Source: an uncultured Alphaproteobacteria bacterium (GTDB taxonomy: Bacteria > Pseudomonadota > Alphaproteobacteria > Rhodobacterales > Rhodobacteraceae). From it: a stretch of 64,000 nucleotides of DNA. How positions within the stretch are numbered: the first letter of the stretch is position 1; each line of letters begins with the position of its first letter. The notes under the pieces are model-generated. The model was not told where the DNA came from and did not search any database. It saw nothing but the letters and a program-made list of their open reading frames with translations. A program made the position numbers and the translations under genes. Positions 2,875 to 41,749 of the stretch are shown here, piece by piece. Location: contig CAVOZD010000025.1 in NCBI GenBank assembly GCA_963700835.1, positions 20,960-84,959 of the forward strand, in the 5' to 3' direction.

Positions 2875-3079
2875 AAAGTCCGCCGCACCGCGCCCTGCCG
2901 GCCGAAGAAGACGCGGATCACCGCCGCCTTCGACGTCGAGGTGGTGCGCTGGTACCGCGGCCTCGGCCACGGCTACCAGGCGCAGATGAACGCGGTGCTG
3001 CGGGTCTACATGCATGCGGTGATCGCGACGGAGATCGAGCAGCGGGGGGGGCCGGGACTGGAAGGGGGATCTGATTTGA
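2875..3079 (+). pseudogene. BrnA-antitoxin-family (ribbon-helix-helix) gene fragment, 5'-truncated, with a +1 frameshift in a G8 run
   Basis: KKTRITAAFDVEVVRWYRGLGHGYQAQMNAVLRVYM matches the BrnA-type pattern; removing one G from 3044-3051 gives QRGGRDWKGDLI-stop (TGA 3077-3079); no plausible start. Confidence 0.7.
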
Positions 3080-3209: not shown

Positions 3210-3587
3210 TTAGTCGCGCACTTGGTATTTGTCCCGTGCGATACGGATAAGGATCGGTGACCCGCCAGCCCGAGCGTAGGTGAACTCGACGACATCAATC
3301 AATTGCGCCATGCGGGTTGCACCGTCCGGCTCCGGGCAGCTCATCCCAATGCGACTCAGCTCTGCGAAACGTGGCTGCTGAAACCTCTGGTGGTTGAAGT
3401 CCTTATCCCAAGAGATGAGCACTCGTTGCGCCTCAATTGCTGCTACTGCGACGGTAGGATCTTTCGCGTCGGCGGCCATGACCTCTCGCACAAGTTCCAC
3501 GTCGTGCCCGCGCTCGCGAAGGAAGTGCGCCACTGAATCGGGCACGTTGTTATCAAGCAAGAAGCGGATGACCGCGGGAAACGCCAT
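3210..3587 (-). CDS. DUF5615 PIN-like toxin (VapC45-like)
   Basis: FLLDNNVP...LRERGHDV...D...RVLISWDKDF acidic PIN motifs; start overlaps the upstream stop (TAATG). Confidence 0.85.
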   Translation of the reverse strand: MAFPAVIRFLLDNNVPDSVAHFLRERGHDVELVREVMAADAKDPTVAVAAIEAQRVLISWDKDFNHQRFQQPRFAELSRIGMSCPEPDGATRMAQLIDVVEFTYARAGGSPILIRIARDKYQVRD

Positions 3588-4234
3588 TAAGCGGCGGTAG
3601 CCCTCATGCTCTTTCGGGCCTCATCCACATCGCCTTGGCGCAATTCCGGAAACTCGCGCAGAATGTCGGGTGTTGGAATGCCGCGGTCAAGATAGGCGGT
3701 AACCGCGGCGACGGGAATCCTCGTACCTTCAAAAACCGGACGATTGTTCATCACGAAACGTTCTCGGACGACATGACCGATTGTCTGCCCCTCCCGGGTG
3801 TTGAGTTCGCGAATGGCGTCCTTGGTGCTCCGGATAGCAGTCGTCAACGGGATGTCTAAGACACGCTGTCCGCTAACGACCTCCAGACGATCGCCGGTTC
3901 TCGGATCATCGAATACGACACGCTTACCCAGCACATAAAGCGTGGTCGCGGTCCATCGCTCCTCTCCCAGGTGCGCGAGGCGTTCGGAAACTTGTCGAAG
4001 ATGCTGCAACGGCACTTTGTGCACGTTCCGAAGCTGCCCCAGCACACGCAACGAGACGATGTCCCGGAAAGAATAAATCCGGCTGTAGGGCAGCCTGCGG
4101 TTCGACTCGGCGTAGCTTGGTTTTAAGAAGCCATTTTTGTCCCATTGGCGTAGCTGACCTTTCGTCAGCCCGGACAAGCGGGCAGCATCTGCGTCGCTAA
4201 ACGCTCCAATGACTTGGTTATTGTGCACAGCCAT
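3587..4234 (-). CDS. MerR-like HTH plus DUF433 antitoxin (VapB45-like)
   Basis: N-terminal AARLSGLTKGQLRQWD...RIYSFRDIVSLR; C-terminal MNNRPVFEGTRIPV...ILREFPEL; start moved to ATG 4234. Confidence 0.85.
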   Translation of the reverse strand: MAVHNNQVIGAFSDADAARLSGLTKGQLRQWDKNGFLKPSYAESNRRLPYSRIYSFRDIVSLRVLGQLRNVHKVPLQHLRQVSERLAHLGEERWTATTLYVLGKRVVFDDPRTGDRLEVVSGQRVLDIPLTTAIRSTKDAIRELNTREGQTIGHVVRERFVMNNRPVFEGTRIPVAAVTAYLDRGIPTPDILREFPELRQGDVDEARKSMRATAA

Positions 4235-4433
4235 CCTCGCAGCGCGCTCAGCACGTCTTTTTGTAGAGATGATGCAGAATTCGGTGCGCGTCAATCTTGA
4301 CGGGCTCATCGTAGGAAGGGACCCGCATGACAGCACCCGACCCAGCCTCCTTGACGGCACCGCAATTGAGACCGCTGTTGACACAAAAGGGCCTGTTCGC
4401 TGGTTTTCGTGCTTCCCGTAGTTCTCCCCCTTT

Positions 4434-4522
4434 CACTGATTTGTCCGTCGACAAATCGGTGCGCGCCTGCCTGCCCCCGGCAGGCGCGACAGACGCGCCC
4501 GCCAGGCAGGCGCGCACCGATT
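4434..4522 (+). repeat. hairpin repeat family, copy C
   Basis: 12-bp stem with tetraloop at 4434-4461; perfect 20-bp inverted repeat 4454-4473/4503-4522; core GCGCCTGCCTGCCCCC...GCGCCCGCCAGGCAGGCGC shared with the copies at 33918 and 36207. Confidence 0.85.
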
Positions 4523-4550
4523 CCGCGCCGTCGGGGAGGCTTGGGGCCCC

Positions 4551-4619
4551 TCGCCCTGCGCGCTCGCGCGCTGCGGGCGACCGGATCGCGCGGGGCGGTG
4601 CCCCGCTTGGGCGATCCGG
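4551..4619. repeat. two further GC-rich hairpins
   Basis: tcgccc...gggcga (4551-4580); ccggatcgc/gcgatccgg (4581-4589/4611-4619) enclosing gcggggc-ggt-gccccgc. Confidence 0.7.
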
Positions 4620-4681
4620 GGGCTGGGGTCGCTGTCTTTCCCGGAGGACGGGCCAGTCTCTCGGGACGGGGCGGGGTCGGG

Positions 4682-12704: not shown

Positions 12705-12719
12705 AGCCGCCGGGAGCGA

Positions 12720-22787: not shown

Positions 22788-27224
<4,437 letters not shown>

Positions 27225-27243
27225 TCCGAAAGGGGCCCCGCAC

Positions 27244-27642: not shown

Positions 27643-27662
27643 TCCACCCGCCGCGCGGCGGC

Positions 27663-29699: not shown

Positions 29700-29707
29700 G
29701 CGCCCGG

Positions 29708-30550
29708 TCAGTTTCCGATCCACAGGTCGAGCCGCCCGCGCTCGGTGTCGGGCAGGAGCTCGCCATAGTCGCGGATCACCACCTCGCGCCCGTCGGCCAG
29801 CATCGGCGCGACCAGAGCCGCCAGCGCCTCGGCCGCGGCGCGGTCCTCGGCGTGGTAATATCCGACCCGGCTCTGCACGATCTCGAAGGGCAGCGTCTCG
29901 ATCCGCGGCGCGCCATGTCCGGCCGCCTCCAGCGCGGCGGTGACGCGCGCGGCGAGGTCCGGGGGCACTTCCGCGCCGACCCGGAAGCGGATCGGAGTCT
30001 GCGCGATCGGCGGCGCCTCGGCGGGGGCGGCCGGGGTCGTCGTCTCCACCGCGCCCTGGGCGGCGATCTCCGCGACGACCGGCTCCTCGGCGGCCGGGAC
30101 GGTGCGATCGCGCACGCTCACGATCTGCGGCCGCAGCGCCAGGGCTGCGGCCACGATGCCGATCGCGACAAGGGCGCCGAAGGCGATCCAGGCCGCCATC
30201 CAGCGCGATCCGCGCGGCGCGGCGTAGGCGCTGCGCTGGTCGAACTCGGGCTGGGGCTGGAAGACGGGCTCCGCGCCGCCGGTCCACGAGGGCGGCGGCG
30301 CCAGCCCGGGCGGCGGTCCCGCCGGCGCGCCCGTCGACTTGGGCGCCGGTTCGGACGCAGGCGCCGGGCGCGGCGCGGTCGCGCCCGGACTGCGCCAGGG
30401 GCCGGAAACCGCCCCGGCCCGGATCCCGTCGCGCCTGCTCAGGTTCTCGGCGACGCCCGTCTGGGGCCGTCCGCGCGTGCCATCCACTTCAAGCCACCAA
30501 TTCTGCTGCTCCGGTCGCGCCCGCCACCCCTGACGAGCCGACATGCTCAC
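29708..30550 (-). CDS. membrane-anchored hypothetical protein; C-terminus resembles LytR_C-type domains
   Basis: Pro-rich N-terminus, one TM segment (WIAFGALVAIGIVAAALAL), C-terminal SRVGYYHAEDRAAAEALA...RDY...LDLWI; start uncertain. Confidence 0.6.
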   Translation of the reverse strand: MSMSARQGWRARPEQQNWWLEVDGTRGRPQTGVAENLSRRDGIRAGAVSGPWRSPGATAPRPAPASEPAPKSTGAPAGPPPGLAPPPSWTGGAEPVFQPQPEFDQRSAYAAPRGSRWMAAWIAFGALVAIGIVAAALALRPQIVSVRDRTVPAAEEPVVAEIAAQGAVETTTPAAPAEAPPIAQTPIRFRVGAEVPPDLAARVTAALEAAGHGAPRIETLPFEIVQSRVGYYHAEDRAAAEALAALVAPMLADGREVVIRDYGELLPDTERGRLDLWIGN

Positions 30551-30625
30551 AATAGCATAGTTTGCGCGCCGCGCGCTTCCAATCGGTGGTTTTGTGAATT
30601 GCTTAAGCCGTCAGGGCCGCTTTCT

Positions 30626-31858
30626 TCAGCCAGATGTTGCGTTGCGGTACCACTCGACGATGGCGCGGCGCTCCGCGGGCTCGATGCCGGTGACGTTACC
30701 CGGCGGCATGGCGTGCGAGCGCCCCGCCTGAAGATAGATCTCGCGGGCGTGGGCGGCGATCTGCGCCTCGGTCTCCAGCATCACGCCCTTGGGCGCGGTG
30801 ATCAGCCCCGGCCAGTAGACCTCCGCCGCGTGGCACATCGAACAGCGCCCGAGCACGGTCTCGGCCACCGCCTCGAACCCCTCGGCGCTGGCGAAGCGCA
30901 TCTCGCGCGGGCTCATGGCGACGGGCTCGGCCTCCTCCGCCGCCGGCGTGCCGGAGAAGGTCGAGAGCCACATGATCACCACGAAGATCACCGCCGTGGC
31001 CAGCCAGGTCCATTTCGGATCGCCCCTGCGGGCGTGCATCGAGTTGAAATAGTGCCGGATCGTCACGCCCATCAGGAACACCAGGCTCGCGATCAGCCAG
31101 TTGTATTGCGTGGCGAAGGCCAGCGGGTAGTGCGTGGACAGCATCAGGAAGATCACTGGCAGGGTGAGGTAGTTGTTGTGCGTCGAGCGCAGCTTGGCGA
31201 TCTTGCCGTATTTCGGGTCCGGCGTGCGCCCCGCCTTGAGGTCCTCCACCACGATCTTCTGGTTGGGGATGATCACCAGGAACACGTTCGCGGTCATGAT
31301 CGTGGCGGTGAACGCGCCCAGATGCACGAGCGCCGCCCGCCCCGAGAACACCTGCGTATAGCCCCAGGCCATGACGACCAGCACGACGAAGAGCAGGAGC
31401 ATCAGCACCGTCGGCCGCTCGCCCAGCCCCGACTTGCAGAGCTGGTCGTAGACCACCCAGCCCAGCGCCAGCGACGCCAGCGAGATCAGGATCGCCAGCG
31501 GCGCGCCGACGTCGAACACCGTCCGGTCGATCAGGAAGAGATCCGCCCCGAGATAGTAGACCAGAACCAGCATCGCGAAGCCCGAGAGCCAGGTCGCGTA
31601 GCTCTCCCACTTGAACCAGGTCAGGTGCTCGGGCAGCCGCTCGGGCGCCACCAGATACTTCTGGATGTGGTAGAAGCCGCCGCCGTGCACCTGCCACTCC
31701 TCGCCCGACGCGCCCGGCGGCATGTCCGGGGCCCTGGTCAGGCCAAGGTCGAGCGCAATGAAGTAGAACGACGAGCCGATCCATGCGATGGCGGTGATGA
31801 CGTGGACCCAGCGGGTCGCGAAGGTCAGCCAGTCCATGATGATGGCGAAATCGTACAT
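30626..31858 (-). CDS. puuD: urate hydroxylase PuuD (membrane protein with C-terminal cytochrome c)
   Basis: RWVHVITAIAWIGSSFYF, WQVHGGGFY, RSTHNNYLTLP, CSMCH haem motif. Confidence 0.93.
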   Translation of the reverse strand: MYDFAIIMDWLTFATRWVHVITAIAWIGSSFYFIALDLGLTRAPDMPPGASGEEWQVHGGGFYHIQKYLVAPERLPEHLTWFKWESYATWLSGFAMLVLVYYLGADLFLIDRTVFDVGAPLAILISLASLALGWVVYDQLCKSGLGERPTVLMLLLFVVLVVMAWGYTQVFSGRAALVHLGAFTATIMTANVFLVIIPNQKIVVEDLKAGRTPDPKYGKIAKLRSTHNNYLTLPVIFLMLSTHYPLAFATQYNWLIASLVFLMGVTIRHYFNSMHARRGDPKWTWLATAVIFVVIMWLSTFSGTPAAEEAEPVAMSPREMRFASAEGFEAVAETVLGRCSMCHAAEVYWPGLITAPKGVMLETEAQIAAHAREIYLQAGRSHAMPPGNVTGIEPAERRAIVEWYRNATSG

Positions 31859-31985
31859 GCGTGCGCTCCCCGGGGCTTCGCCGCGAACCATCGCCGGAAT
31901 CCCCGCGCCGGGCAACGCGCCGCGCGGTCCGATCACTTTCAAATGCCGCTTGATAATGTCGCGCCCGGGCGTAGCCTCCGGGCCC

Positions 31986-32921
31986 ATGTCCTACGTCGCC
32001 ACCCTGCGGACCTTCGTGCGGGTCCACGAACTGGGCTCCATGTCCGCCGCCGCCCGCGACCAGCGCATCTCCGCCGCCGTCGCCTCCGCGCGCATCGGCG
32101 AGCTGGAGAAGCATCTCGGCGTGCGGCTCTTCAACCGCACCACCCGCAGCCTGCGCCCGACCGAGCAGGGCGAGATCTTCTACGCCGGCGCCCAGCGCAT
32201 CCTCGAGGCGATCGACGCCGCCGAGGCCGAGGTCGCGGAGGTTTCGCGCAATCCCCGCGGCTCGATCCACGTCGCCGCGCCGCTGGGCATCGGCAAGCGG
32301 CTGATCGCGCCGCTGATCCCGCGCTTCCGCGACGCCTATCCCGACATCGACGTGCGCCTGCGCCTCTCCGACCGCCGCCTCGACGTCACCGGCGAAGGGC
32401 TCGACGTGGTGTTCGCGCTCGGGGTGCTGGAGGATTCCAACCTCCGCATCCGCCCGATCGCCGACTGCGCCCGGGCGCTCTGCGCGTCGCCCGCCTATGT
32501 CGCCCGGCGCGGGACCCCGCGCAGCGGTGACGACCTGCTGGCGCAGGGCCACGACTGCCTGCTGCTGCGCTATCCCGGGGCGCCTGAATTCGCCTGGACG
32601 CTCGCCACGCAGACGGGCCCGCGCCGCTTCGACGTCTCCGGCAGCCTTGAGAGCGACGACGGCGACGTGCTCACCGGCTGGGCGCTCGACGGGCGCGGCA
32701 TCGTCCTGAAGCCGCTCTTCGAGGTGACCGGCCACCTTGCCCGGGGCGAGTTCGTCATCGTCGCCGCCGAGACCCCGCCGCTCGACGCCCAGCTCGCCTG
32801 CCTCTACCCGCACAAGCGCCTGCAGGACCCCAAGGCCCGGCTCTTCATCGACTTCATGGTCGCCGGGGTGCGCGAGAGCCTCGCCGCCCTGCTCGCGGCC
32901 GCGCCCGAGCGCGTCGCCTGA
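31986..32921 (+). CDS. LysR-family regulator, divergent from puuD
   Basis: ELGSMSAAAR...LGVRLFNRTTRSLRPTE. Confidence 0.92.
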   Translation: MSYVATLRTFVRVHELGSMSAAARDQRISAAVASARIGELEKHLGVRLFNRTTRSLRPTEQGEIFYAGAQRILEAIDAAEAEVAEVSRNPRGSIHVAAPLGIGKRLIAPLIPRFRDAYPDIDVRLRLSDRRLDVTGEGLDVVFALGVLEDSNLRIRPIADCARALCASPAYVARRGTPRSGDDLLAQGHDCLLLRYPGAPEFAWTLATQTGPRRFDVSGSLESDDGDVLTGWALDGRGIVLKPLFEVTGHLARGEFVIVAAETPPLDAQLACLYPHKRLQDPKARLFIDFMVAGVRESLAALLAAAPERVA

Positions 32922-33006
32922 GCCGGGGCGCCGCGCGGTCCTCGGCCCGGATCCGCAACGCCGCCCGAACCGGTGCATTCTCCCGGCGAACAGCCCGGAG
33001 ACGCCC

Positions 33007-33891
33007 ATGCCCGATTCGCCCGAGATCCGCCGCACTCCCCTCGCCGAGATCGACCCCGCCGCCCTCGCCCGCGACCGCATCGCCTCGGACCCCGAGGCCC
33101 AGCGCGAGCTGCGCGATTCGATCCTGAAGTCCGGCCTGCGCATGCCGATCGAGGTCTACGCCTTCCCCGAGACCCGCGGCGCCTTCCGCTTCGGCCTCGT
33201 CTCCGGCTTCCGCCGCCTCGCCGCGTTCCGCGAGCTTCTCGAAGCGTTCGGGGTCGAGGACTGCGCCAGCATCCCCGCCTTCGTGCGGACCCCCGCCGAC
33301 CGCGCCGAGGCGATGGCCGCAATGGTCGAGGAGAACGCCGTGCGCGCCGACATCTCGCCCTGGGAGCGCGCCCGCGTCGCCGTCGAGGCCGCCCATGTCG
33401 GCATCTATGGCACCGTCGAGGAGGCGGTGGAGCACCTCTTTCCCACCGCGAACGCCATGAAGCGCGCGCGCATCCGCGCCGTCGCCCGCGTGGTCGAGGT
33501 GCTCGACGGCGCGCTCACCGAGCCCGAGCGGTTGTCGCTGCGCCAGCTGCTGCGCCTCTCCGGCGCGATCCGCGACGGCTTCGGCGAGCCGCTCGAGGTG
33601 GCGCTGCGCCAGACCCGGCTGCGCGACCGCGACAGCCAGTGGGCGGCGATGCTGCCCTATCTGGTGGAGGCCGAGCGCTTCGCCGCGCGCGACGACGGCC
33701 CCGACTCCGCCGCGCCCGCCCTCGAGACCCGCGGCCGCCCGCGCCGCGTGCTCAAGCCGCGCCCGCATCTCGTCGTGCGCCGCGAGATCTCCCGCGAGGG
33801 CTACATCCTGCGCTTCACCGGCAAGGAGGCCACGTCGAGCCTGCTCGACGAGGTGCTCGACGAGATCGAGCGCTGGTTCTCGCCGGGGTGA
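33007..33891 (+). CDS. orphan ParB N-terminal-domain protein, similar to plasmid ParBs
   Basis: ARDRI...LRDSILKSGLRMPIEV...GLVSGFRRLAA (ParB Arg patch), VEENAVRADISPWE. Confidence 0.85.
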   Translation: MPDSPEIRRTPLAEIDPAALARDRIASDPEAQRELRDSILKSGLRMPIEVYAFPETRGAFRFGLVSGFRRLAAFRELLEAFGVEDCASIPAFVRTPADRAEAMAAMVEENAVRADISPWERARVAVEAAHVGIYGTVEEAVEHLFPTANAMKRARIRAVARVVEVLDGALTEPERLSLRQLLRLSGAIRDGFGEPLEVALRQTRLRDRDSQWAAMLPYLVEAERFAARDDGPDSAAPALETRGRPRRVLKPRPHLVVRREISREGYILRFTGKEATSSLLDEVLDEIERWFSPG

Positions 33892-33917
33892 GCGGCGGGC
33901 GCGGCGTCGAACCCGGC

Positions 33918-34068
33918 CCGCCTGGCGGCCACGCCGGGCGGCGCCCGCCTGCCCCCGCGGCAGGCGCTTTCGCGCCCGCCCAGGCAGGCGCCGGCCTCTG
34001 CGCGAAGCTCAACGGTTGAAGGCGATCTGCGCATCCTGGTCAAGCGCAGCCCTCGGCGACGACGCGCC
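33918..34068 (+). repeat. hairpin repeat family, copy A (~150 bp)
   Basis: Direct repeat of 36207-36362; by manual alignment 90 of the first 97 nt are identical, plus an identical 21-nt block atcctggtcaagcgcagccct. Confidence 0.92.
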
Positions 34069-34200
34069 CCGCCCCGGCCGGACTGTCCTCTTATGCGGAA
34101 CGCGCGCCGCCGGCCCGACGGTGTCGGGTCGGGCGCCGCCCTCCTTTCCCCGCGCCTCGCTCTTGGCGAAGACCTGATGCTCGACGCTCGAGACGCGAAA

Positions 34201-34267
34201 CGGCTTCGCGTCCGGTGGAGACCCGCGATGCGCCGGCCTGCAACCGGCGCCCCGCGGACCGAAGCCG
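34201..34267. other. long hairpin with one extrahelical base (attC-like shape)
   Basis: cggcttcg(c)gtccg pairs with cggaccgaagccg, 13 bp with a bulged C at 34209; inner stem gcgccgg-N7-ccggcgc. Confidence 0.55.
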
Positions 34268-34322
34268 CCGGTCACGCGACATTTCACTTGGTCTTCACAG
34301 GCCGCCGCGGCTGACAGCTCTG

Positions 34323-34892
34323 ATGGGCTACGACTACGACAAGCTGTACGGCGAGACCCGCGACGCCTTGGGTCCGCCTGCGGCCGCCATCGTCGATTTT
34401 TTCGACCAGTATGAGCGGCGGAATGCACCTGTTCTGGACGTGGGATGCGGTCAGGGCCGCGACGCAGTCTTCATCGCGCGGCGCGGCCACCGTGTCGTCG
34501 GGGTGGACCTCTCTGCGAACGGCATCCGCGATCTGCGAGCGGTCGCGGGACCGGAGCGCCTCGCCGTCGAGGCGATCGTCGCGGACATCGAGGACGACAC
34601 GCCGTCCGGCGCATTCGATGTCATCTTGATCGATCGCACCCTGCACATGCTGACGCGGGACGCGCAGTTCTCGGTCCTCTCGACCCTGCTCGATCACGTG
34701 TCCCAGAACGGCTGGGTGCTGATCGCCGACGAGGAGTCGAACATCGACGGCTTTCAAGGCGTCATCGCCGCCGATCGTCGGGACCGGACAGTCGAACACC
34801 GGCAGCGAGGCCATCTGTTCGTGCGCCGCGCGCTGGACGAAGGTTCACGTCGGGACGGAGACCAGCGTGAGGCCTGGGAACCAGACGTCTGA
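34323..34892 (+). CDS. class I SAM-dependent methyltransferase (TehB-like)
   Basis: VLDVGCGQGRDAVFIARRG...VGVDLS...FDVIL. Confidence 0.85.
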   Translation: MGYDYDKLYGETRDALGPPAAAIVDFFDQYERRNAPVLDVGCGQGRDAVFIARRGHRVVGVDLSANGIRDLRAVAGPERLAVEAIVADIEDDTPSGAFDVILIDRTLHMLTRDAQFSVLSTLLDHVSQNGWVLIADEESNIDGFQGVIAADRRDRTVEHRQRGHLFVRRALDEGSRRDGDQREAWEPDV

Positions 34893-34969
34893 TCCTGACC
34901 ACCAGCTACCTCGGCCACCAATTCCCGCCACCCCGCGACCCGCCCGAGCCGGCGGTCCGGCCAGCCTCC

Positions 34970-36046
34970 TCATCGCACCGCGCTCGGCGCAACGCATGCG
35001 CGCCTCTCGTCCGTCAGGGAAACATCTCCCGAAGCCGAAAGCCACTCCGGAGCATCCGCGCCGGGCTCCGCCGGCGCTTCGCCGCTCTTCGCGTCGAGCG
35101 ATCCGATCGCCACGTCGCCGACAGCCCAGAGCACATTCGCGAAGGCGAAGGTGGCGCCGGCGGCCGTTCCTGTCGCCAGCGCCAACGCGCCCGTGATCAC
35201 ACGCCAGGGCAGCCGCGCCAGCATGCTGGTGACGAACGGCTGCTCCTGCTTCACGCGGCGGGGAATCCAGAAAAGGCCGGGGTGGACAAGCCAGCGGATG
35301 CACCAGCCAACGCCGGGGTCGAGCTTCCGGGCCATCCAGCCGGCGACGGCGCCGGTCGATGACAGGAGCGTCGCCACGACACCGCCCCGCATGCCGCCCA
35401 CATCCCTGGTCTCGCGCGCCGCCTCGATGGCGTAGCATCCGCCCTGGTAGGTCAGCAGGCCGGCGGCGGCGACGAACACCCCGGACAGAAACGTCGCGGC
35501 GCTGAGCGCCAGTCCGGTTCCGCCGGGTCCGAACAGCTGCACCGCGAGAACCATCACACCGGCCCCCGCGAGCGCCAGACCGCCGAGCGACAGGGCCAGT
35601 CCGCCCAGTTTCAGCAACAGGGGGAAATTCGCCGCCCCGCGCATCAGGCAGGAGCCCACGACAAAGGCGCAGGCCGCGACGGTGAACAGATTGGCGTTGC
35701 TGACCAGTGCATAACCCAGAAGCCCCAGCGCCAGCGGCACCGCGAGCGCGTTCACCGCGTCCGCCGCCATCGCTCCGAAGCGTCGGCGCACCGCGTTGCC
35801 GAGCGGATAGGCGATCACGACGATCGCGATCACGCCAAGGGTGGCGAAGACCTCCGGGGCCTGTCGCGCCAGCCACAGGATCGCCGCGGCCGGCGACGCG
35901 CCGCCTGTCCTGTAGGCGTCGGCCAGGCTGTCAAGAAACGCTCTGATCCCGCCGGCGCCGGTGATCGACGCGATGACGTTGCCGGTCTCGTATCCCCAGA
36001 ACTGGATCTCGAAACTGTGCCGTTTCATCCGATTGAAGTTCATCGA
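34970..36046 (-). CDS. hypothetical multi-pass membrane protein
   Basis: Roughly 7-8 hydrophobic segments in a 350+ aa ORF; start uncertain (36046 or 36028). Confidence 0.65.
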   Translation of the reverse strand, partial: SMNFNRMKRHSFEIQFWGYETGNVIASITGAGGIRAFLDSLADAYRTGGASPAAAILWLARQAPEVFATLGVIAIVVIAYPLGNAVRRRFGAMAADAVNALAVPLALGLLGYALVSNANLFTVAACAFVVGSCLMRGAANFPLLLKLGGLALSLGGLALAGAGVMVLAVQLFGPGGTGLALSAATFLSGVFVAAAGLLTYQGGCYAIEAARETRDVGGMRGGVVATLLSSTGAVAGWMARKLDPGVGWCIRWLVHPGLFWIPRRVKQEQPFVTSMLARLPWRVITGALALATGTAAGATFAFANVLWAVGDVAIGSLDAKSGEAPAEPGADAPEWLSASGDVSLTDERRACVAPSAVR

Positions 36047-36206
36047 GGACCATCTCCGAAATATTGAATGGCCAACAGGAAGCGGAAAGACGCACAGACG
36101 GTTAATGCCAAAAAAGAAGGCGGACTGCTCAGTCATATAGCATGACGTGGCGGGTCTGTCTGTGGTCTCTGTTCCGGTCCGTGTGGCGACCCGCGCCCCA
36201 CCCTTT

Positions 36207-36362
36207 CCGCCTGGCGGCCACGCCGGGCAGCGCCTGCCTGCCCCCGTGGAAGGCGCTTTCGCGCCCGCCCAGGCAGGCGCCGCCCTCTTCGCGAAGCTCG
36301 ACGTTGGACGGCAAGGGTCAGAGTATCCTGGTCAAGCGCAGCCCTGGGCGACGCGACGCGCC
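36207..36362 (+). repeat. hairpin repeat family, copy B (~155 bp)
   Basis: See copy A; begins ccgcctggcggccacgccgggc. Confidence 0.92.
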
Positions 36363-36661
36363 TTCGCCCAGCAGAGTCGCCCGGTGTCGCAATCACCCCA
36401 ACCAGCATTCCCCAAGTAGCCCTCTGACTTCGCTGTTCGGAACCGGTTATTTCCGCTATAAATCATATTGTTGACGGCATGCAGAGGCGTGTTTCATGGA
36501 TCGCCCAAAAGGGGCGTTTCCGGGACCGGAGACACCGGTCGGGGCGAAAAACATTTGTCCAGCAAGCAGAATCAGGCAATCTTGATGCAAGACGGCGGTC
36601 TATCTGGGGAATGTCTGTTTGTTAAGTTTATGTGAATATGTTCGTTTTGGGGAGGGAAATC

Positions 36662-36988
36662 ATGATCTGTAAAAGAAGACTACTTGGCATTTATATCGCA
36701 ACGACAATGATTTTTTCAACTACGGCTGAGGCTGACTATTCTTTTTCTGTTGACGCGCATATTCTTATTGCAGAATGTTTGTCAAACAGTGATTTTTGCA
36801 TCGGTTTTGTTACCGGGGTTGTACAGGTTGGTCAGAATACTGGAATAATTTGTAAAATTGATGACAGTGTAGGTGTAGATGATGTTGTTCATGAGGTTCT
36901 GCAAAAAATGGAATTGTTCTATGAGTATCGCTCTCGCCCAGCGGAGAACTTCATTCTTAACACAACGAAGGCGGAGTTTTGCGAATGA
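36662..36988 (+). CDS. Rap1a/Tai-like immunity-family protein, exported
   Basis: Signal peptide; L-x3-C-x5-C-x-GFVTGV-x9-C...RPAENFI...FC pattern; GGAGG RBS; hand-counted GC about 33-40% over the first 120 nt. Confidence 0.65.
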   Translation: MICKRRLLGIYIATTMIFSTTAEADYSFSVDAHILIAECLSNSDFCIGFVTGVVQVGQNTGIICKIDDSVGVDDVVHEVLQKMELFYEYRSRPAENFILNTTKAEFCE

Positions 36989-37018
36989 TCAATTTGGCTA
37001 TGATGGCTTGTTGCTCGA

Positions 37019-37108
37019 CTAGTTCTCGGAGCCTGACGCTTGCTACCTGACACCCCGGATTTCATCGAGAGCGTTCAGGGCGCGGCGCTCAAGGGCGACG
37101 ATGTCCCT
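37019..37108 (-). mobile_element. probable IS630-family right-end remnant
   Basis: Minus strand reads RDIVALERRALNALDEIRGVR-stop, then caagcgtcaggctccgagaacTAG; resembles IS630 transposase C-termini and CTAG/TA ends as I recall them; no start and no other end. Confidence 0.45.
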
Positions 37109-37310
37109 TCAGCCCATCGGCGAGATCCCCTCTCAATGTCATTTGGCCGACCGCGGCGCCCGGCAGACCGGACCCGCCACGGTCCCGGACCGTGTTACGC
37201 CCGCAATTAACGAAGATGAATCACTTCAAAATCAATCAGATACCCGGAATTGCACGCGTGTTACACGCCCCGTAACACATCCCGGAGCGGGCGCGCGAGC
37301 CCGCGGACCG

Positions 37311-40300
37311 TCACTCCGCCGGCGCCGGCCGGGGCTCGGCCTCCAGGTCCGCCGGCGCCAGCGGGCAGAGCCGCAGCAGCGGCGGCACGGTCAGCAGCGT
37401 CAGGAACGCCGACATCGCCAGCCCGCCGACCACGACCGCGCCGAGCCCGCGGTAGAGCTCCGACCCCGCCCCCGGAAACAGCACCAGCGGCAGCATCCCG
37501 CAGACGCTTGTGAGCGTCGACATGAAGATCGGCCGGATCCGGTTGGCCGTCGCCTCCTCGATCGCCGCCGCTGGCTCCATGCCCTCCTCTCGCAGGTGAT
37601 AGAGCGTCTTGTGGACGATCAGGATGGCGTTGTTGACCACGATCCCCACCAGGATCACGAAGCCGAGCAGCGTCAGCATGTCCAGCGGCTGGTTCTGGAA
37701 GAGGTTGAGGATCGCCAGTCCCCCGACCCCGCCCGCGGCGGCCACCGGCACCGAGATCATGATCACCAGCGGCAGCACGAAGCTCTCGAAGAGGATCGCC
37801 ATCACGAGGAACACGATCACTACCGCCACCGCCAGGTTGACCTGGATGGCGCTCCAGGTCTGGCTGAGCTGATCGGCGGTGCCCGACACCGCGAGCCGCA
37901 CGCCCGGCGGCAGTCCCTGCGCCTCGAGCGCCGCGACCACCTCGGTCTCCAGGATCTCCACCGCCGCCTCCAGCGGCAGGTCGGGAGCCGGCCGCACTTC
38001 GAGCGTGACCGTGCGCAGCCGGTCGCGGTGGCGGATCTCGGTGGGTCCCGCGGTCACCCGCACCTCTGCCAGCGCACCCAGCGGCACGATCTGCCCCGAC
38101 GGCGTGACGATGGGAAAGCTGCCGACATCCTGGGTTCGCAGATCCCCGACCGGCGCGCCCATCAGCGTCAGGTCGATCCGGTTCGCGCCCACGGTGATCT
38201 CGGCCACCCTGACCCCGTCGTTGTAGGCGTCGACCGTCTGGGCGATATCGGCCGCGCCGACTGCGGCGTCCGCCTGCAGGAGCCGGTCGGGGATCAGCCG
38301 GATCTCCGGAGCGCCGAGTTCGAGGCCGGGTATCGGCCGGAACTGGTGGCCCTCCTCGCGCGGCAGCGCCCCGGCGATGATCCCGGCCGCGCGCCCGGCG
38401 ACGCCGAGGATCTCCTCGAGGTCCTGTCCCGACACGTTGAGCTCGATCGTGCGCGCGCCCCCGACCCCGCGCCCGAAGAGCGACGGCTGGGTCATGAAGC
38501 CGAAGGTGCCCGGCTCGGCGAAGATCGGGCCCGACAGGATCGGGATGGTCTCGCCGGCCCGCGCTCCGTCGACCGCGCTCGCGCCCACGAAGCTGCTGCC
38601 CGACAGCGCGACGAAGAAGAATCCCTCGAGCGCCGGACGCCCGTCGGCGGTCTCGGTCGCCGGGCGCGCCTCCCACATAGGACGCGCCACTTCCTCGACG
38701 CGCTGGGCGATGGTTTCGGTGGTGTCGAGATTGTAGCCGGGCGGCGGAATGATCAGCCCGAAGACGAGGTTGCGGTTGCCCTCGGGGAGGTATTCGAGCT
38801 TGGGAAGGAACGCCCAGGCGGCCCCGCCGGCGATCCCCGCGATCGCCGCGACGAAGGCGAGCCCAAGCGCGCGGTTGCGAATCGCGAGCCGAGTGTAGCC
38901 CATCACGCCCCGACAGAAGAGCGCCGCGAGATCGTCGATCACCGGCAGGCGCATCACCTTCCGCCCCTCGCCGGCGCGGCCGAGCAGGCGCGAGGCGAGC
39001 GCCGGAACCACCGTCACCGCCACCACCAGCGACAGCATCACCGACACCGAGATCGCCACGGCGATGTCGCGGAAGAGCTGTCCGGCCTCGAGCTCCATCA
39101 CCAGGATCGGGATGAACACCATCACCGTGGTCAGGGCCGAGACGAGGATCGCGCCCCATACCTGGCTCGCGCCCAGATACGCCGCCTCGCGCCGCGACAG
39201 CCCCTTCTCCCTTAGGCGGAAGATGTTCTCCAGGACCACGATCGCGGCGTCCACGATCATGCCGATGGCGAAGGCGATGCCGGCGAGCGAGATCACGTTG
39301 AGCGTGCGCCCGGTCGCCGCCATCGCCACGAAGGTCGCCACGATCGACACCGGGATCGACAGCGACACGACCAGCGTGGCCGACGGGCTGCGCAGGAACA
39401 GCATCAGCACGCCGGCCGCAAGAAGTCCGCCCACCCAGATGTTCTGCACCACGAGGTCGATCGCGCTCTCGATGTAGACGGTCTCGTCGTAGACCTGTTC
39501 GAGCACGAGACCCTGCGCGGCGACCGGCCCGGCGGCGAGTTCGTCCAGCACGACCCGGATCTCCGCCATGGTCTCGATCACGTTGGCGCCGCTCTCGCGC
39601 ACGATGTTGAACGCGAGGCCCGGCTCGCCGCGGAACCGCAACCGCGCCTGCGGCTCCTTGTGCCCGAACTTCACTTCCGCCACGTCGCCGAGCCGGAGAC
39701 GCCCCCGCGAGCCGGTCCCGTCCGGAGCCTCCGAGCGCAGCACCACGCCGCGCACCGCCTCGAGCGTGTTGAGATCCCCCTCGGCGCGCACCACGTAACG
39801 CCGCTTGCCCTCCTCGACGTCCCCGGCGGAGATCGAGACGTTCTCGCGGCGCAGCGTCGATACGATCTCCGGGATCGTCAGCCCGTAGCGCGACAGGTCC
39901 TCCGGCCGCACGACGATCTGAAGTTCGCGCGCAACCCCGCCGAAGACGTTGACGGCGGAAACTCCGTCGATGCGCTCGAGACGCTCCTTGATCACATCGT
40001 CCACGAAGTCCCCGAACTGGGGCAGCGGGGTCTCGTTGCCGGACGCGGCGGTCAGCAGCACCCACGCGATCGCGCTGTCGTCCGCGCCGGAGGTGTTGAG
40101 CGTCGGCGTGCCCGATTCCTCGGGATAGCTGCTCACCCGGTCAAGTCGGTTGGACACCAGAAGCAGCGTCTGGCTCATGTCGGTCCCGACCGCGAACTCC
40201 AGGGTGATCTCGGCTTCGCCCGTCTGAGCGCGCGAAGTCATGATCTCGAGCCCGTCGAGGCCGCGCAGCACGTCCTCCTGCGGGTTGATGATCTCGCGCT

Positions 40301-40478
40301 CGATCTCCACCGGCGCGGCCCCAGGCCATGCGGTGCTGACCACCACCACCGGGCTGCGCACGTCCGGCGCGAGCTGCACCGGGATCCGGCTGAGCGCTAG
40401 CACGCCGAACAGCACCGCCATCGCCACGACGGCGAGCACCGCGATCGGCCGGTCGATGGCGAAGCGGATCGGATCCAT
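37311..40478 (-). CDS. RND efflux permease (AcrB/AcrD/AcrF family)
   Basis: FAIDRPIAV, GMIVDAAIVVLENI, GIVVNNAILIV, RIRPIFMSTLT. Confidence 0.95.
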   Translation of the reverse strand: MDPIRFAIDRPIAVLAVVAMAVLFGVLALSRIPVQLAPDVRSPVVVVSTAWPGAAPVEIEREIINPQEDVLRGLDGLEIMTSRAQTGEAEITLEFAVGTDMSQTLLLVSNRLDRVSSYPEESGTPTLNTSGADDSAIAWVLLTAASGNETPLPQFGDFVDDVIKERLERIDGVSAVNVFGGVARELQIVVRPEDLSRYGLTIPEIVSTLRRENVSISAGDVEEGKRRYVVRAEGDLNTLEAVRGVVLRSEAPDGTGSRGRLRLGDVAEVKFGHKEPQARLRFRGEPGLAFNIVRESGANVIETMAEIRVVLDELAAGPVAAQGLVLEQVYDETVYIESAIDLVVQNIWVGGLLAAGVLMLFLRSPSATLVVSLSIPVSIVATFVAMAATGRTLNVISLAGIAFAIGMIVDAAIVVLENIFRLREKGLSRREAAYLGASQVWGAILVSALTTVMVFIPILVMELEAGQLFRDIAVAISVSVMLSLVVAVTVVPALASRLLGRAGEGRKVMRLPVIDDLAALFCRGVMGYTRLAIRNRALGLAFVAAIAGIAGGAAWAFLPKLEYLPEGNRNLVFGLIIPPPGYNLDTTETIAQRVEEVARPMWEARPATETADGRPALEGFFFVALSGSSFVGASAVDGARAGETIPILSGPIFAEPGTFGFMTQPSLFGRGVGGARTIELNVSGQDLEEILGVAGRAAGIIAGALPREEGHQFRPIPGLELGAPEIRLIPDRLLQADAAVGAADIAQTVDAYNDGVRVAEITVGANRIDLTLMGAPVGDLRTQDVGSFPIVTPSGQIVPLGALAEVRVTAGPTEIRHRDRLRTVTLEVRPAPDLPLEAAVEILETEVVAALEAQGLPPGVRLAVSGTADQLSQTWSAIQVNLAVAVVIVFLVMAILFESFVLPLVIMISVPVAAAGGVGGLAILNLFQNQPLDMLTLLGFVILVGIVVNNAILIVHKTLYHLREEGMEPAAAIEEATANRIRPIFMSTLTSVCGMLPLVLFPGAGSELYRGLGAVVVGGLAMSAFLTLLTVPPLLRLCPLAPADLEAEPRPAPAE

Positions 40479-40491
40479 CGCGCGCGTCCCC

Positions 40492-41646
40492 TCAGCCGCC
40501 GGACCGGGCCGGCGCGACCTCGGCGCTGCCCTCGGGGCGCGCGTCCGCAGGCTGAGCCGCAATCGGTTGCATCGGTCGCAACCGCTCGTTGCCGCGCACC
40601 ACGACCTCGTCGCCCTCCGCCAGTCCCGAGATCACTTCGAAGCGGTCCGCGAAGGCGCGGCCGATCACCACGTCGCGCGGAGCCGCCACGCCGTCCTCGT
40701 TCACGAAAGCTGTCCAGGCGCCGCGCGCCTGGATCATTGCGTCCTTCGGAGCGAGCAGCAGCGTTTCGGGCGGCGCGGTCGGCACGTCGATCACGATGGT
40801 CTGGCCCAGCGCGGCCTCCGGCGCCGCACCCGCCGCCGGGGTCAGCCGCACCGGGCGCGTCCGGGTTGCGGAGAACTCGCTCGGAAGCACCGCGCGCACG
40901 ACCAAAGCGATCTCGCCGCCGTCCGCGCCGCGCCCCTGCACCGACTGGCCCGGGGCCAGCGCCGCCACGAACTGCGCGGGCACGTTCGCCTCCACCTCCA
41001 TCTCGGCCACGTCGAGGAGCCGCGCCACCGGCTCGCCGATCTGGACGTACTCTCCGACCGCGATGCGCACGTCCATCACCGTGGCCGGGAACGGCGCGCG
41101 GATCGTCGCGCGCTCGAGGTTGTACGACGCGCCCGCGCGTTCGGCCTCGGCGTTGAGAAGCCGCGCCTCGGCGCGCGCCATTTCCCCGCGGGCCCGGGCG
41201 AGTTCGCCCTCGCGGTCCTCGAACTGGCCCTGGCTGAAGGCGTTGGACCCGCGCAGGCCCTCGACGCGCGCGAACCCGCGTTCGGCAAGCAGGATGCCCG
41301 CCCGCGCAACCTCCACGCCGGCCCGCGCCTCCGCGATCGCCGCCTCCGCCTGGGCCAGCAGGATCTCGAGCAACTCGTGATCGAGCTCAGCAAGCATATC
41401 GCCCTCGGCAACCGCGTCGCCCGCCTCGATCGCGACCTCGGTGACGACGCCGGCGACGCGGACGGCGACCTCGCTCTCGCGATTGGCCACGAACTGGCCG
41501 TAGACAGGAACTGTCTCGAAGATCTCGCGCCTGTCGACGCGTTCGGTGAGCACCATCGCCGGCTGGTCCTGCGCAGCCGCAAACTGCCAGGACGCAGCCG
41601 GTGACATGGCTGCGGCCGAGAGCGCAAGAACGCGAATGACTTTCAA
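40492..41646 (-). CDS. RND periplasmic adaptor subunit
   Basis: VAVRVAGVV...GDAVAEGDMLAEL, coiled hairpin, IRAPFPATV, GLAEGDEVVVRG; start uncertain. Confidence 0.88.
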   Translation of the reverse strand: MKVIRVLALSAAAMSPAASWQFAAAQDQPAMVLTERVDRREIFETVPVYGQFVANRESEVAVRVAGVVTEVAIEAGDAVAEGDMLAELDHELLEILLAQAEAAIAEARAGVEVARAGILLAERGFARVEGLRGSNAFSQGQFEDREGELARARGEMARAEARLLNAEAERAGASYNLERATIRAPFPATVMDVRIAVGEYVQIGEPVARLLDVAEMEVEANVPAQFVAALAPGQSVQGRGADGGEIALVVRAVLPSEFSATRTRPVRLTPAAGAAPEAALGQTIVIDVPTAPPETLLLAPKDAMIQARGAWTAFVNEDGVAAPRDVVIGRAFADRFEVISGLAEGDEVVVRGNERLRPMQPIAAQPADARPEGSAEVAPARSGG

Positions 41647-41749
41647 GTGTCCGATCCCACCAGCGAACCCTTGAGGATAACCCCATTTGGGCGAAGTCAA
41701 AGACAATGCGTCGCCAGCGCGGCGCGCGCGCCTCCGGATGATCCGCTCC

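Follow-up and report, generated by a model that had tools for sequence, protein, structure and literature searches.

The window (the whole stretch of DNA that was analysed, 64,000 nt) comes from the genome of an uncultured member of the Rhodobacteraceae, here called G000, and contains three copies of a hairpin-forming repeat. Copies A and B enclose two genes, referred to below as the cargo, and copy C lies near the left end of the window. The features at and around these copies are listed by window position:

2881..3012, + strand: BrnA antitoxin gene fragment (C-terminal part), on the outer edge of the island left of C
3210..4384, - strand: DUF433/MerR-type antitoxin-like gene and DUF5615/PIN-like toxin-like gene, forming a 56-59% GC island left of C
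4434..4640, + strand: repeat copy C, a type II unit
33007..33891, + strand: orphan ParB-N-like gene, ending 13 nt before A
33904..34070, + strand: repeat copy A, a type I unit, direct repeat of B
34323..34892, + strand: cargo gene 1, TehB-like SAM-dependent small-molecule methyltransferase, not of a DNA methyltransferase family
34970..36136, - strand: cargo gene 2, multi-pass membrane protein of 388 aa, without a match to any Pfam, NCBIfam or PADLOC family
36193..36362, + strand: repeat copy B, a type I unit plus the 3' extension of A
36632..36988, + strand: Rap1a-like gene of low GC content (45-53%), conserved in the relative G212 with 77% amino acid identity
37167..37280, + strand: copy of a second repeat, the 'box'

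A repeat search aligned 33904-34023 with 36193-36312 (87% identity) and 34026-34070 with 36318-36362 (82%), and A matched B at E=1e-35 in a search against the whole 3.43-Mb genome. The initial annotation had described A and B as direct repeats with 90 of 97 positions identical, followed by an identical 21-nt block (ATCCTGGTCAAGCGCAGCCCT); both observations were confirmed. Copy A carries a 3' extension of approximately 75 nt that is common to B only. The 51-nt core of A and B (GCGCCTGCCTGCCCCCGGCAGGCGC...GCGCCCGCCAGGCAGGCGC) was also found in copy C at 4434-4522, so the third copy claimed at that position does share the core and the fold, but it reaches further in the 3' direction, to about 4640. 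Copy C scored 89.9 bits with a covariance model of the family. The shared layout proposed from the sequence, a tetraloop hairpin abutting a GC stem, agreed with the predicted folds of all three copies, in which an 8-13-bp hairpin with a 4-nt loop stands beside an extended GC stem that has a C-rich bulge on its 5' side. These folds were more stable than those of shuffled sequence (z = -3.2, -3.3 and -8.3).

The two genes between A and B had been taken for defence-type cargo, a description that fits neither the small-molecule methyltransferase nor the membrane protein, which had no defence match. A genus-level DNA search located homologs of the membrane-protein gene (68-78% nucleotide identity) elsewhere in four members of the genus, and a search with the membrane protein in 151 genera, at one genome each, found nothing. 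The context of the membrane-protein gene was conserved among three of these genomes (G008, G024 and G220) and differed from the A/B locus. In the relatives, no homolog of the methyltransferase adjoined the membrane-protein gene, and no repeat was found at the borders of the cargo homologs.

On the right side of B, the Rap1a-like gene lies in an island of approximately 0.8 kb between B and the box. BrnA 3' fragments like the one in the island left of C abut two further copies of the repeat, F and G, on contig C17, where a 1.18-kb insert containing one gene and copy G lies between two copies of the ~180-nt BrnA 3' end. No tRNA or tmRNA gene that could have served as an island target was found in the window.

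Architecture of the repeat unit

Each unit opens with a 5' hairpin (X-loop-X'), continues with a double-palindrome core that hardly varies, and closes with a 3' tail in which X recurs and which can pair with X'. The core is made up of four alternating 9-mers (GCGCCTGCC / GGCAGGCGC). In copy A the 5' hairpin is CCGCCTGGCGG-CCA-CGCCGGGCGG, the core spans 33941-33991 and the tail is CCGGCCTC. In copy C the hairpin is GATTTGTC-CGTC-GACAAATC, followed by the core and the tail GCACCGATT, and after the tail comes a 3' module consisting of CCTCGCCCTGCGCGCTCGCGCGCT and a nested hairpin, CCGGATCGCGCGGGGC...GCCCCGC..GCGATCCGG.

As the initial annotation had anticipated, the repeats form a family with a common structure: related genomes contain numerous copies, and changes at paired positions compensate each other. 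A perfect stem of at least 7 bp was present in the first hairpin of 99 of 112 copies, built from 64 distinct arms, and the mean stem length was 9.8 bp compared to 3.5 bp in shuffles. The tail paired with the X' of its own copy at 7.6 of 9 positions, compared to 5.2 of 9 when the tail was taken from another copy. The inverted ends of the unit take the form of a closing helix, in which GC, CG, AU and UA pairs are exchanged between copies. The folds of the family were stable on both strands.

The core is common to type I and type II units, which have different hairpins and 3' modules; extra modules specific to a lineage can be attached to the unit. A 3' module of approximately 110 nt was common to copy C and the type II units of G218 and G008, and other flanking modules were found on type I units in G008. 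In G218, a comparison of 20 near-identical copies gave a sharp 3' end (…CCGGTCCC) and a ragged 5' end, from which no target duplication could be read. The alternative pairings open to X / X' / X, together with the 21-nt block, which A, B and the G212 copy share without a mismatch, hint at a constraint.

Distribution and placement of the family

The three copies are not a local system of their own. The genome of G000 contains eight copies (A-H), and a scan with an exact pattern yielded at least 117 loci in genomes of Rhodobacter, Rhodovulum, Amaricoccus, Fuscovulum, Pseudorhodobacter and Defluviimonas; one carrier is the cultured strain Fuscovulum blasticum DSM 2131. Copies were present in 49 of the 55 genomes of the genus and absent from six, with a range from 0 to at least 78 per genome, and some of these genomes had many near-identical copies. 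Many copies were located at contig ends. No Rfam family matched the window at its gathering score, and the matches at E≤10 were all far below threshold (for example ROSE, 25 versus 45 bits). A description of the element was not found in the literature on REP or MITE sequences of Rhodobacter, Rhodobacterales and Paracoccus, and the family is apparently undescribed so far.

Nearly all copies were intergenic, with only 2 of 121 inside called open reading frames. The 64 copies for which both neighboring genes were called lay between convergent (25), tandem (31) or divergent (8) gene pairs; those between tandem genes were divided 18 to 13 by orientation, showing no preference relative to the upstream gene. 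Clusters of two to four copies within 0.1-8 kb were observed, and tandems in the same orientation were frequent in the relatives. In the copy-rich genome G006, such same-orientation pairs flanked ftsK, lolA, xdhC/coxE-type (molybdenum cofactor) and opp-type ABC-transporter genes.

According to the initial annotation, the three copies sit at the borders of accessory DNA and none is among housekeeping genes in the window. The first part stands insofar as most copies in G000 are in or beside strain-specific DNA; elsewhere in the genome, copy H lies between cysS and a leuA-like gene. Another copy is located in a purine-catabolism locus. Enrichment beside accessory genes did not hold as a property of the family, the copies being spread through intergenic DNA regardless of such genes: low-GC flanks were found in only 4 of 92 and 0 of 92 cases, the flanks of 121 copies in other genomes were compositionally ordinary, and element pairs flank genes such as ftsK and lolA.

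Comparison with a close relative

G212, a relative that is ~90% identical, does not have the 2.3-kb cargo, and is colinear with G000 up to 33919 and from 36199 onward. It retains a decayed remnant of the A lineage and an intact, full copy of the B lineage, 135 nt apart, and copy B is the ortholog of this single intact copy (87.6% identity). The prediction that relatives would show an empty site with a single repeat was therefore correct for the missing cargo, but the site holds a decayed A in addition to an intact B rather than one repeat. This indicates that the A/B pair predates the split between G000 and G212, and that the cargo indel is not the product of excision or integration between A and B. 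The breakpoints of the indel fall inside the extension of A and 26 nt upstream of B, which are not equivalent points of the repeat. Furthermore, with 13% divergence and a separate ortholog of each in G212, A and B are not products of recent integration.

These observations bear on the proposal that the repeats form a dedicated, non-autonomous gene-capture or cassette system, in which pairs of elements would be recombination sites for an enzyme acting in trans and the cargo would be biased toward defence. The proposal draws on the absence of the cargo from G212 with limits close to both repeats, on the second bracket, around copy G on contig C17, and on the several copies that abut low-GC islands with toxin-antitoxin or defence-like genes. 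The non-equivalent breakpoints, the A remnant beside an intact B and the separate orthologs of two diverged repeats argue against it, as does the fact that the repeated sequence of the C17 bracket is the end of a gene and not the element.

Only B (plus the A remnant) and D among the eight copies were conserved in G212, and copy C was missing from the orthologous site. Six of the seven element-bearing intergenic regions of G000 that were compared differed from G212, against a background of ~12% of intergenic regions (~118 kb compared), and the only two large gene-content indels in the ~56 kb of the window that was compared both coincided with elements. A purely neutral view, in which the copies are junk repeats, does not predict this association of the G000 copies with strain-specific DNA. 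At the C, E and G loci, G212 had different accessory DNA of lower GC content and no element (at the toxin/antitoxin island beside C, a different insert of 0.74 kb), and since these loci are variable in G212 without the element, they are hotspots regardless of it. The claimed enrichment at strain-variable genes is thus seen in G000, but the same loci are also variable where the element is absent.

One alternative is a passive recombination or insertion hotspot, with hairpin repeats that would stall replication or offer homology, so that foreign DNA and rearrangements gather beside them without a dedicated enzyme. It would account for the excess of changed regions and for the two coincident indels, and is in keeping with the clustering of elements and their occurrence near multi-copy ParB-like genes. 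We nevertheless consider it unlikely given the variability of element-free loci in G212 and the ordinary composition of flanks in other genomes. In addition, C, E, F and G lie inside G000-specific segments and not at conserved borders, and three rearrangement breakpoints in the window (~12.7, 14.8 and 55.7 kb) had no element.

Evidence for mobility and the search for an enzyme

The clearest insertion was that of copy H, a clean 138-nt insertion between the cysS stop and the start of the leuA-like gene, flanked by an 8-9-bp direct repeat (GGGGNTCAT); at this site G212 has an uninterrupted ATGA overlap. H was the only copy with a clean direct repeat at its ends. Comparison of G008 with G024 (94-98% identical) revealed five presence/absence differences of 93-300 nt, the junctions of which had GCAYCSGYG (7 of 9 matches) or just 3-7-nt repeats, and these differences could be deletions. 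Overall, copy number shifts fast from genome to genome, and at an orthologous site one close relative may have a unit that another lacks.

The initial annotation noted that no transposase or integrase was in the window, and this holds for the genes adjoining the copies and, for Y1 transposases, across the genome. A six-frame search for PF01797 (RAYT/Y1), which took in 41 genomes, had no match in G000, G003, G006, G008, G012, G013, G014, G016 or G024; the controls matched. The genes adjoining copies included ParB-like, LysR, RND, gap and glpK genes, and there was no recombinase beside any copy. The linked RAYT/TnpA that had been anticipated was thus missing from G000 and from these copy-rich relatives. 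Because a trans-acting enzyme was looked for and not found, the evidence for mobility is comparative only.

The ParB-like gene was considered separately as the source of a partner enzyme. It is multi-copy in the genus, with six matches in G000 (three intact genes and a fragmented one) and 12 in G007, and elements were found within 1.5 kb of 8 of 25 ParB-like loci. This adjacency represents an enrichment, but the arrangement was not fixed and gene number did not track element number (no ParB-like genes and 38 elements in G002, three and one in G017), leaving the ParB-like protein as a minor possibility.

Relation to known repeats and mobile elements

The REP/BIME sequences of Enterobacteria and the REPINs of Pseudomonas are short GC-rich extragenic palindromes formed from inverted short units, with high and variable copy numbers. 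Most are found at the 3' side of genes and where genes converge, and they form tandem clusters as well as mosaics with other motifs; REPINs go with a RAYT gene (Y1 HUH transposase) in the same genome, usually flanked by REPs. The element resembles them in being a short extragenic palindrome that reaches 78 copies or more in one genome of the genus and is missing from others, and whose core consists of four alternating 9-mers. It differs in that RAYT is absent from G000 and from the copy-rich genomes, in its extra 5' hairpin, whose 3' arm has two possible partners, the 5' arm of the same hairpin and the 3' tail, and in the conservation of its core across several genera, REP-type sequences being species-specific. 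No GT[AG]G-type head was visible by eye beside the palindrome in 112 aligned copies. Units with variable modules, clusters, an adjoining box and a location chiefly at gene 3' ends are reminiscent of mosaics of the BIME/RIME type. According to PMC2573895 (citing Osteras et al. 1995), the RIMEs (Rhizobium-specific intergenic mosaic elements), Sm-repeats and AB/C palindromes of Sinorhizobium are intergenic mosaic palindromes of ~100 nt with dozens of copies, and RIME-type repeats are of unknown function with both sequence and secondary structure conserved. The element shares with them its character as an alphaproteobacterial intergenic mosaic palindrome, a likeness drawn from their description, but they belong to the Rhizobiales and probably differ in sequence.

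MITE-type elements that served for comparison are the Correia elements of Neisseria and the BOX and RUP elements of Streptococcus. By the definition of a MITE in PMC3281130, a study that used trap plasmids to capture transposition events in Paracoccus, the element is similar in being non-coding and shorter than 300 bp and in having ends that are inverted repeats and give a long hairpin when folded. Further likenesses are insertion polymorphism, a direct repeat at one insertion (H), and a modular build as in BOX. It differs in that the target duplication is clear at that one site only, and in that the extra arm at its left end makes it more than a simple unit bounded by terminal inverted repeats.

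Three other candidates were rejected. In integrons and CALINs, accessory genes such as toxin-antitoxin pairs and small enzymes, with single same-orientation ORFs per cassette, lie between attC sites, which are palindromes of 60-140 nt with imperfect pairing. The repeats described here are likewise imperfect palindromes around accessory genes, but no intI was found near the element, the R''/R' core sites (RYYYAAC ... GTTRRRY) were not conserved between A, B and C (GTTGGAC occurs only in the extension of B, and A has GTTGAAG), the A-B 'cassette' consists of two genes in opposite orientation, and genome-wide the repeats occur behind housekeeping genes. A PATE of the IS200/IS605 type, with subterminal hairpins processed by a Y1 TnpA, was rejected on the absence of any PF01797 match in the genome. 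A canonical intrinsic terminator, in which a GC-rich hairpin runs straight into a T-run, did not fit because CGGCCTCTGCGCG comes after the stem in A and CGCCCTCTTCGCG in B, the tails of type II units have no more than GATT(T) at their end, and orientation relative to the upstream gene is mixed.

Interpretation

We consider it likely that A, B and C are non-coding, hairpin-forming modular repeats of the REP/BIME/RIME/MITE kind, dispersed intergenically in Rhodobacterales (Paracoccaceae), and that they bracket the cargo by accident. The units would be, or until recently would have been, mobilized in trans as non-autonomous DNA by an enzyme other than RAYT, and would persist chiefly behind genes and in flexible DNA, where they may do the least harm. 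A and B would be an old neighboring pair, as expected of a family in which tandem clusters are common, and the intervening DNA of 2.15-2.3 kb would be an indel specific to one lineage. Most probably, the membrane-protein gene, native to another locus, was translocated between A and B together with the methyltransferase gene; as judged from two genomes, the cargo may later have been lost from G212 by illegitimate deletion or may have been gained only on the G000 branch. A and B would therefore delimit the cargo by position and not as a mechanism of capture.

A selected RNA or DNA structure, such as a bidirectional terminator or insulator, a stabilizer of mRNA 3' ends, or a binding site for a protein such as the orphan ParB-like one, would explain the compensatory changes in two helices, the invariance of the core across genera and the preferential placement behind genes. 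The GC hairpin and short T-rich stretch that end type II units, the terminator-like nested hairpin in the 3' module and the proximity to ParB-like loci are also consistent with such a role. We regard this explanation as quite unlikely, considering that copy number varies so widely within one genus, that six genomes have none, and that genomes with 94-98% identity differ in whether an orthologous site has a unit. Orientation was unbiased, no T-run follows the stem of A or B, ParB-like genes neither track the elements in number nor stand in a fixed arrangement with them, and there was no Rfam match. The cassette system is highly improbable: in addition to the evidence from G212, there is no Y1 transposase in the genome and no recombinase beside any copy, cargo homologs in relatives lack bordering elements, pairs in G006 flank ftsK, lolA, xdhC/coxE-type and opp genes, and the cargo methyltransferase does not modify DNA by its family assignment.

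If the reading of the repeats as dispersed, accidentally bracketing units is right, this locus reveals no new way of gene capture. It adds a well-delimited, multi-genus, RAYT-less and apparently undescribed family to the poorly catalogued intergenic repeats of the Rhodobacterales. Repeats of this family break assemblies, mimic structured RNAs and terminators in scans and mark recently exchanged DNA, and a covariance model of the unit would allow annotators to mask them. The swings in copy number within one genus offer a usable system for finding the mover of RAYT-less palindromic repeats. One rather doubtful idea is that units with a switchable X / X' / X pairing could be sites of a RAYT-independent DNA transaction that multiplies the units and favors turnover of the few kb nearby, possibly by way of the orphan ParB-like proteins often found close to them or of recombination of GTA-sized fragments. 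If this were true, flexible genes would turn over preferentially beside the units.

The box (core GAATTGCACGCGTGTTA) is a second repeat family, with at least 30 copies in the genome, and is more abundant than the hairpin element. The two were found together at other sites as well: on contig C13 a box lies ~20 nt from copy D, and the element also adjoins a box on contig C15.

A structured repeat family in the Rhodobacterales

The direct repeats A (33904-34070) and B (36193-36362), spaced 2289 nt apart, and a related copy, C (4434-4522), had been noticed in the initial annotation, and alignment, genome search and folding confirmed them. A and B were 87% identical in a 120-nt segment and 82% identical in the adjoining 45 nt (90 of 97 positions with the coordinates used initially), and when A was the query against the whole 3.43-Mb draft genome, B was matched with E=1e-35. 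A 21-nt block, ATCCTGGTCAAGCGCAGCCCT, was the same in A (34037-34057) and B (36322-36342). The reverse strand of this block includes TTGACC, and the copy in G212, the closest relative, retains the block as far as GCAGCCC, with the extension around it diverged by 15-20%. C has only a 51-nt core, GCGCCTGCCTGCCCCCGGCAGGCGC-N7-GCGCCCGCCAGGCAGGCGC, in common with A and B, and its 5' hairpin is unlike theirs in sequence and alike in shape. In the fold of all three, a short hairpin precedes a long GC helix, which has a C-rich bulge on its 5' side and encloses a stem-loop; relative to shuffles, the stability of the plus-strand folds was higher by 3 to 8 standard deviations, and the minus-strand folds scored -2.1 to -7.5.

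The source genome holds eight copies of this element rather than the three first reported.

Copies of the element in the source genome, with subtype and position (C1, C13, C14 and C17 are contigs)
A, type I, in the window
B, type I, in the window
C, type II, in the window
D, type I, C13:102530-102618
E, type II, C1:26691-26807
F, type II, C17:75743-75830
G, type II, C17:70076-70193
H, type I, C14:98285-98356

The prediction of a structured family with many copies in related genomes was borne out by a covariance model of the unit, built on 63 copies, which found the element in 49 of 55 genus genomes. Copy number by this model ranged from 0 (six genomes) to at least 78, with 8 in the source genome and 2 in G212. 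A BLAST search of 40 relatives with B gave a match in all 24 same-genus genomes, several of which had at least 20 matches. When one genome per prokaryotic species was scanned for the exact pattern, at least 117 loci were found; all of the listed matches were in Rhodobacterales, from Rhodobacter, Rhodovulum, Amaricoccus, Fuscovulum blasticum, Pseudorhodobacter, Defluviimonas and other Paracoccaceae. Some genomes contained dozens of identically scoring copies, which points to recent bursts. Between two relatives that are 94-98% identical (G008 and G024), an element-containing stretch of 93-300 nt was present in one genome and absent from the other at five sites, which confirms rapid turnover; the junction repeats at these sites were short or degenerate.

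Modular structure of the unit

Each unit had its parts in the order X - loop - X' - linker - core - tail. The start of X recurs in the tail, so X' is able to pair either with the upstream X, forming hairpin 1, or with the tail, lengthening the core helix. Among 112 copies from other genomes, hairpin 1 had a perfect stem of at least 7 bp in 99, and its arms comprised 64 different sequences; the mean stem was 9.8 bp, compared with 3.5 bp in shuffles (shuffle maximum 8). The nine core-flanking positions were paired at 7.6 of 9 with the copy's own tail, compared with 5.2 of 9 with the tail of another copy, and GC, CG, AU and UA closing pairs were all present (RNAalifold). The core sequence itself was almost without variation.

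Type I units (A, B, D and H) have the hairpin CCGCCCGGCGG-N3-CCGCCGGGC and the tail GCYGCCCTC, and type II units (C, E, F and G) have the hairpin GATTTGTC-CGTC-GACAAATC and variants of it. A 3' module of about 110 nt with a nested hairpin at its end was common to C and the type II units of two relatives (G218 and G008), which places the true end of C at about 4640. The type I units of G008 were embedded in composite units of 215-300 nt, while among the copies of the source genome a 75-nt extension was found in A and B only; the extra modules thus differ by lineage. Modularity of this sort and the frequent occurrence of tandem clusters are what define BIME/RIME-type mosaic repeats.

Genes next to the copies in the window

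Features adjoining copies A, B and C
33007-33891, orphan ParB-N-like gene, upstream of A
between A and B, cargo gene 1, TehB-like SAM methyltransferase
between A and B, cargo gene 2, 388-aa membrane protein with no family match
36632-36988, Rap1a-like gene of low GC, downstream of B and followed by an RND pump gene
around C, 3' end of glpK on one side and a DUF433/PIN-like pair on the other, in a 56-59% GC island

The methyltransferase matched TehB and other small-molecule methyltransferase families, and its only PADLOC match was to the generic methyltransferase domain of mad2. PADLOC gave no match for the membrane protein, the ParB-like protein or the Rap1a-like protein. The suggestion that the repeats are enriched in defence cargo thus found no support in the A-B bracket, and defence cargo at other copies rests on a few cases. 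Defence-like fragments do occur in islands on contig C17, where a Z1/helicase gene is split and a trypsin-like peptidase shows similarity of an LmuA-like kind.

The Rap1a-like protein was 77% identical to its G212 orthologue, compared with 95% for the neighbouring ParB-like protein; it is a fast-evolving protein. The glpK gene beside C (4682-6191, minus strand) was split near 5700 between two reading frames, with FGGY_N at positions 2-151 in one frame and positions 157-245 and FGGY_C in another. The split marks glpK as a frameshifted pseudogene or else reflects an error of assembly; the window and G212 are colinear at this gene.

The gene pair between A and B

G212 (about 90% nucleotide identity) was colinear with the window, and 27199-33919 and 36199-42503 aligned with the intervening stretch absent. 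After the stop codon of the ParB-like gene, G212 has a decayed repeat with the A-specific characters CGGCC and ACCGTTG..GGCGA, in which two-thirds of the unit, on the 5' side, and the last part of the extension are gone. A full copy with B-specific characters, 87.6% identical to B and 82% identical to A, follows about 50 nt beyond this remnant. This indicates that A and B were neighbours already before the source genome and G212 diverged, and the 13% divergence between A and B is consistent with a pair older than that split. The expectation of an empty site in a relative was therefore correct as to the absence of the cargo, but there was no single hybrid repeat, the A remnant and B both having been kept. 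One indel breakpoint, at about 34031, is within the extension of A, and the other precedes B by about 26 nt; these are non-equivalent points of the two repeats, which excludes both simple excision between A and B and a recent integration of the Campbell type.

Homologues of the membrane gene (68-78% identity) were found in four other genus members, three of which shared one conserved context whose borders had no elements. The methyltransferase had no partner at that context in the relatives. The most fitting explanation for the position of the membrane gene between A and B is a translocation. With two genomes compared, the cargo may be ancestral and have been lost in G212 by illegitimate deletion, which takes fewer events, or it may have been gained in the source genome.

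Copies and strain-variable DNA

Only B (with the A remnant) and D were conserved in G212. C was inside a 2.2-kb segment specific to the source genome, with a different insert of 0.74 kb at this place in G212, and E was in a 0.44-kb segment whose G212 counterpart is 1.9 kb. F was in the middle of a specific 3.96-kb segment, between a part of normal GC and a peptidase-coding island of 42-51% GC. G was in a 1.18-kb insert bracketed by two copies of a BrnA 3' end of about 180 nt (C17:68855-69035 and 70213-70392). H was a clean 138-nt insertion at a point where, in G212, the cysS stop overlaps the leuA-like start (ATGA); it is flanked by CGGGGCTCAT and TGGGGTCAT, so that both genes retain their ends, and it was the only copy with a clear target duplication.

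In about 110 intergenic regions (about 118 kb compared), the two genomes differed by approximately 13 indels or replacements that were 290 nt or longer, and 6 of the 7 element-bearing regions were among the differing ones. The association with strain-variable DNA that had been proposed is thus real in the source genome. Three observations speak for the element as a passenger or recent arrival and against it as the cause of the variability: G212 was variable at the C, E and G loci, with lower-GC accessory DNA of its own and no element; the elements lie within the specific segments, away from conserved borders; and the wider family had no low-GC flank bias.

The insert with G also carries one secreted-protein gene. 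Degenerate BrnA 3' fragments were found beside F (C17:75831-75890) and at the far end of the island by C (window 2881-3012), and BrnA ends seem to recur where variable DNA is joined in this genome. Two islands on C17 (70493-72576 and 75978-78019, 42-58% GC) were absent from G212; one has the Z1-domain/helicase-like gene in two ORFs, and the other has two peptidases, the trypsin-like one, which is weakly similar to LmuA/RT-protease, and an astacin-like one. Synteny between the two genomes was broken by inversion or translocation at about 12707-12770, 14727-14861 and 55716, and neither the element nor a second repeat, the box described below, was detected at these three breakpoints.

Placement relative to genes across the family

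Sixty-four copies with both neighbours called lay between 25 convergent, 31 tandem and 8 divergent gene pairs, and the 31 copies between tandem genes were divided 18 to 13 by orientation. Only 2 of 121 copies were within ORFs, and contig ends held many copies. Low-GC flanks were found on the 5' side in 4 of 92 cases and on the 3' side in none of 92, the composition of the flanks being ordinary. In a copy-rich relative (G006), same-orientation copies bracketed ftsK, lolA, MobA/XdhC/CoxE-type genes and an opp-type ABC transporter. Across the family, therefore, copies have no tie to accessory genes, an outcome that the initial annotation had named as refuting its interpretation.

Candidate enzymes and known repeat systems

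A six-frame search for PF01797 (Y1 transposase, RAYT/IS200 fold) found none in the source genome or in copy-rich genus members, and recovered the expected genes in control genomes. No recombinase was found among the genes adjoining any of the eight copies. No Rfam family matched the element.

The ParB-like gene upstream of A is multi-copy, with 6 matches in the source genome and 12 in another relative (G007). The element was within 1.5 kb of 8 of 25 ParB-like loci, several-fold above the expectation from copy density. However, the two had no fixed relative position, and the count of one was no guide to the count of the other (no genes and 38 elements in G002, three genes and one element in G017). 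The adjacency is taken to mean that both reside in flexible DNA, with a functional link as a minor possibility.

The ParB-N-like set of the source genome comprised three intact paralogues and one that was fragmented.

ParB-N-like paralogue sites outside the window
C4:70742-71593
C1:27144-28046
C24:13622-14479

Some of the 12 matches in G007 were in tandem, and metagenome databases held at least 395 relatives of the gene, often on very short contigs. A homologue with 77% identity was found in a very different context (glmM - acetyltransferase - ParB-like - HARE-HTH).

The element behaves like REP/BIME, RIME and MITE repeats. It matches the description of BIME/RIME-type mosaics and differs from REP/RAYT systems in the defining enzyme, PF01797 being absent; it may be a MITE, one target duplication (H) having been observed, and it is not an attC site. 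Its closest documented alphaproteobacterial analogues are rhizobial RIMEs and Sm-repeats (PMC2573895). Literature searches on REP/MITE elements of Rhodobacter, Rhodobacterales and Paracoccus found no published description, and the family is apparently undescribed so far, though of a kind already known. Of the initial interpretation, the structured family, the cargo absent from a relative and the nearby variable DNA stand, while a new cassette or gene-capture system is unsupported.

Other repeats

A 236-nt direct repeat (46301-46536 and 47580-47815, 81% identity) lies within two adjacent long ORFs and presumably represents a shared protein domain. The box, a separate low-GC family with a unit of about 100 nt, was commoner than the element, with 30 exact core copies in the source genome. 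Its unit has an invariant GAATTGCACGCGTGTTA, an upstream ATTAACGAAGATTAAC (TTAA-N6-TTAAC), which lacks a single base of a CtrA-type site, and a hairpin of the form GTGTTAC-N7-GTAACAC.

Box copies
window 37167-37280
C13:102388-102469
C15:70359-70470
at least 27 other sites

One box was about 20 nt from D, and another was separated from B by about 0.8 kb, in which the Rap1a-like gene lies.
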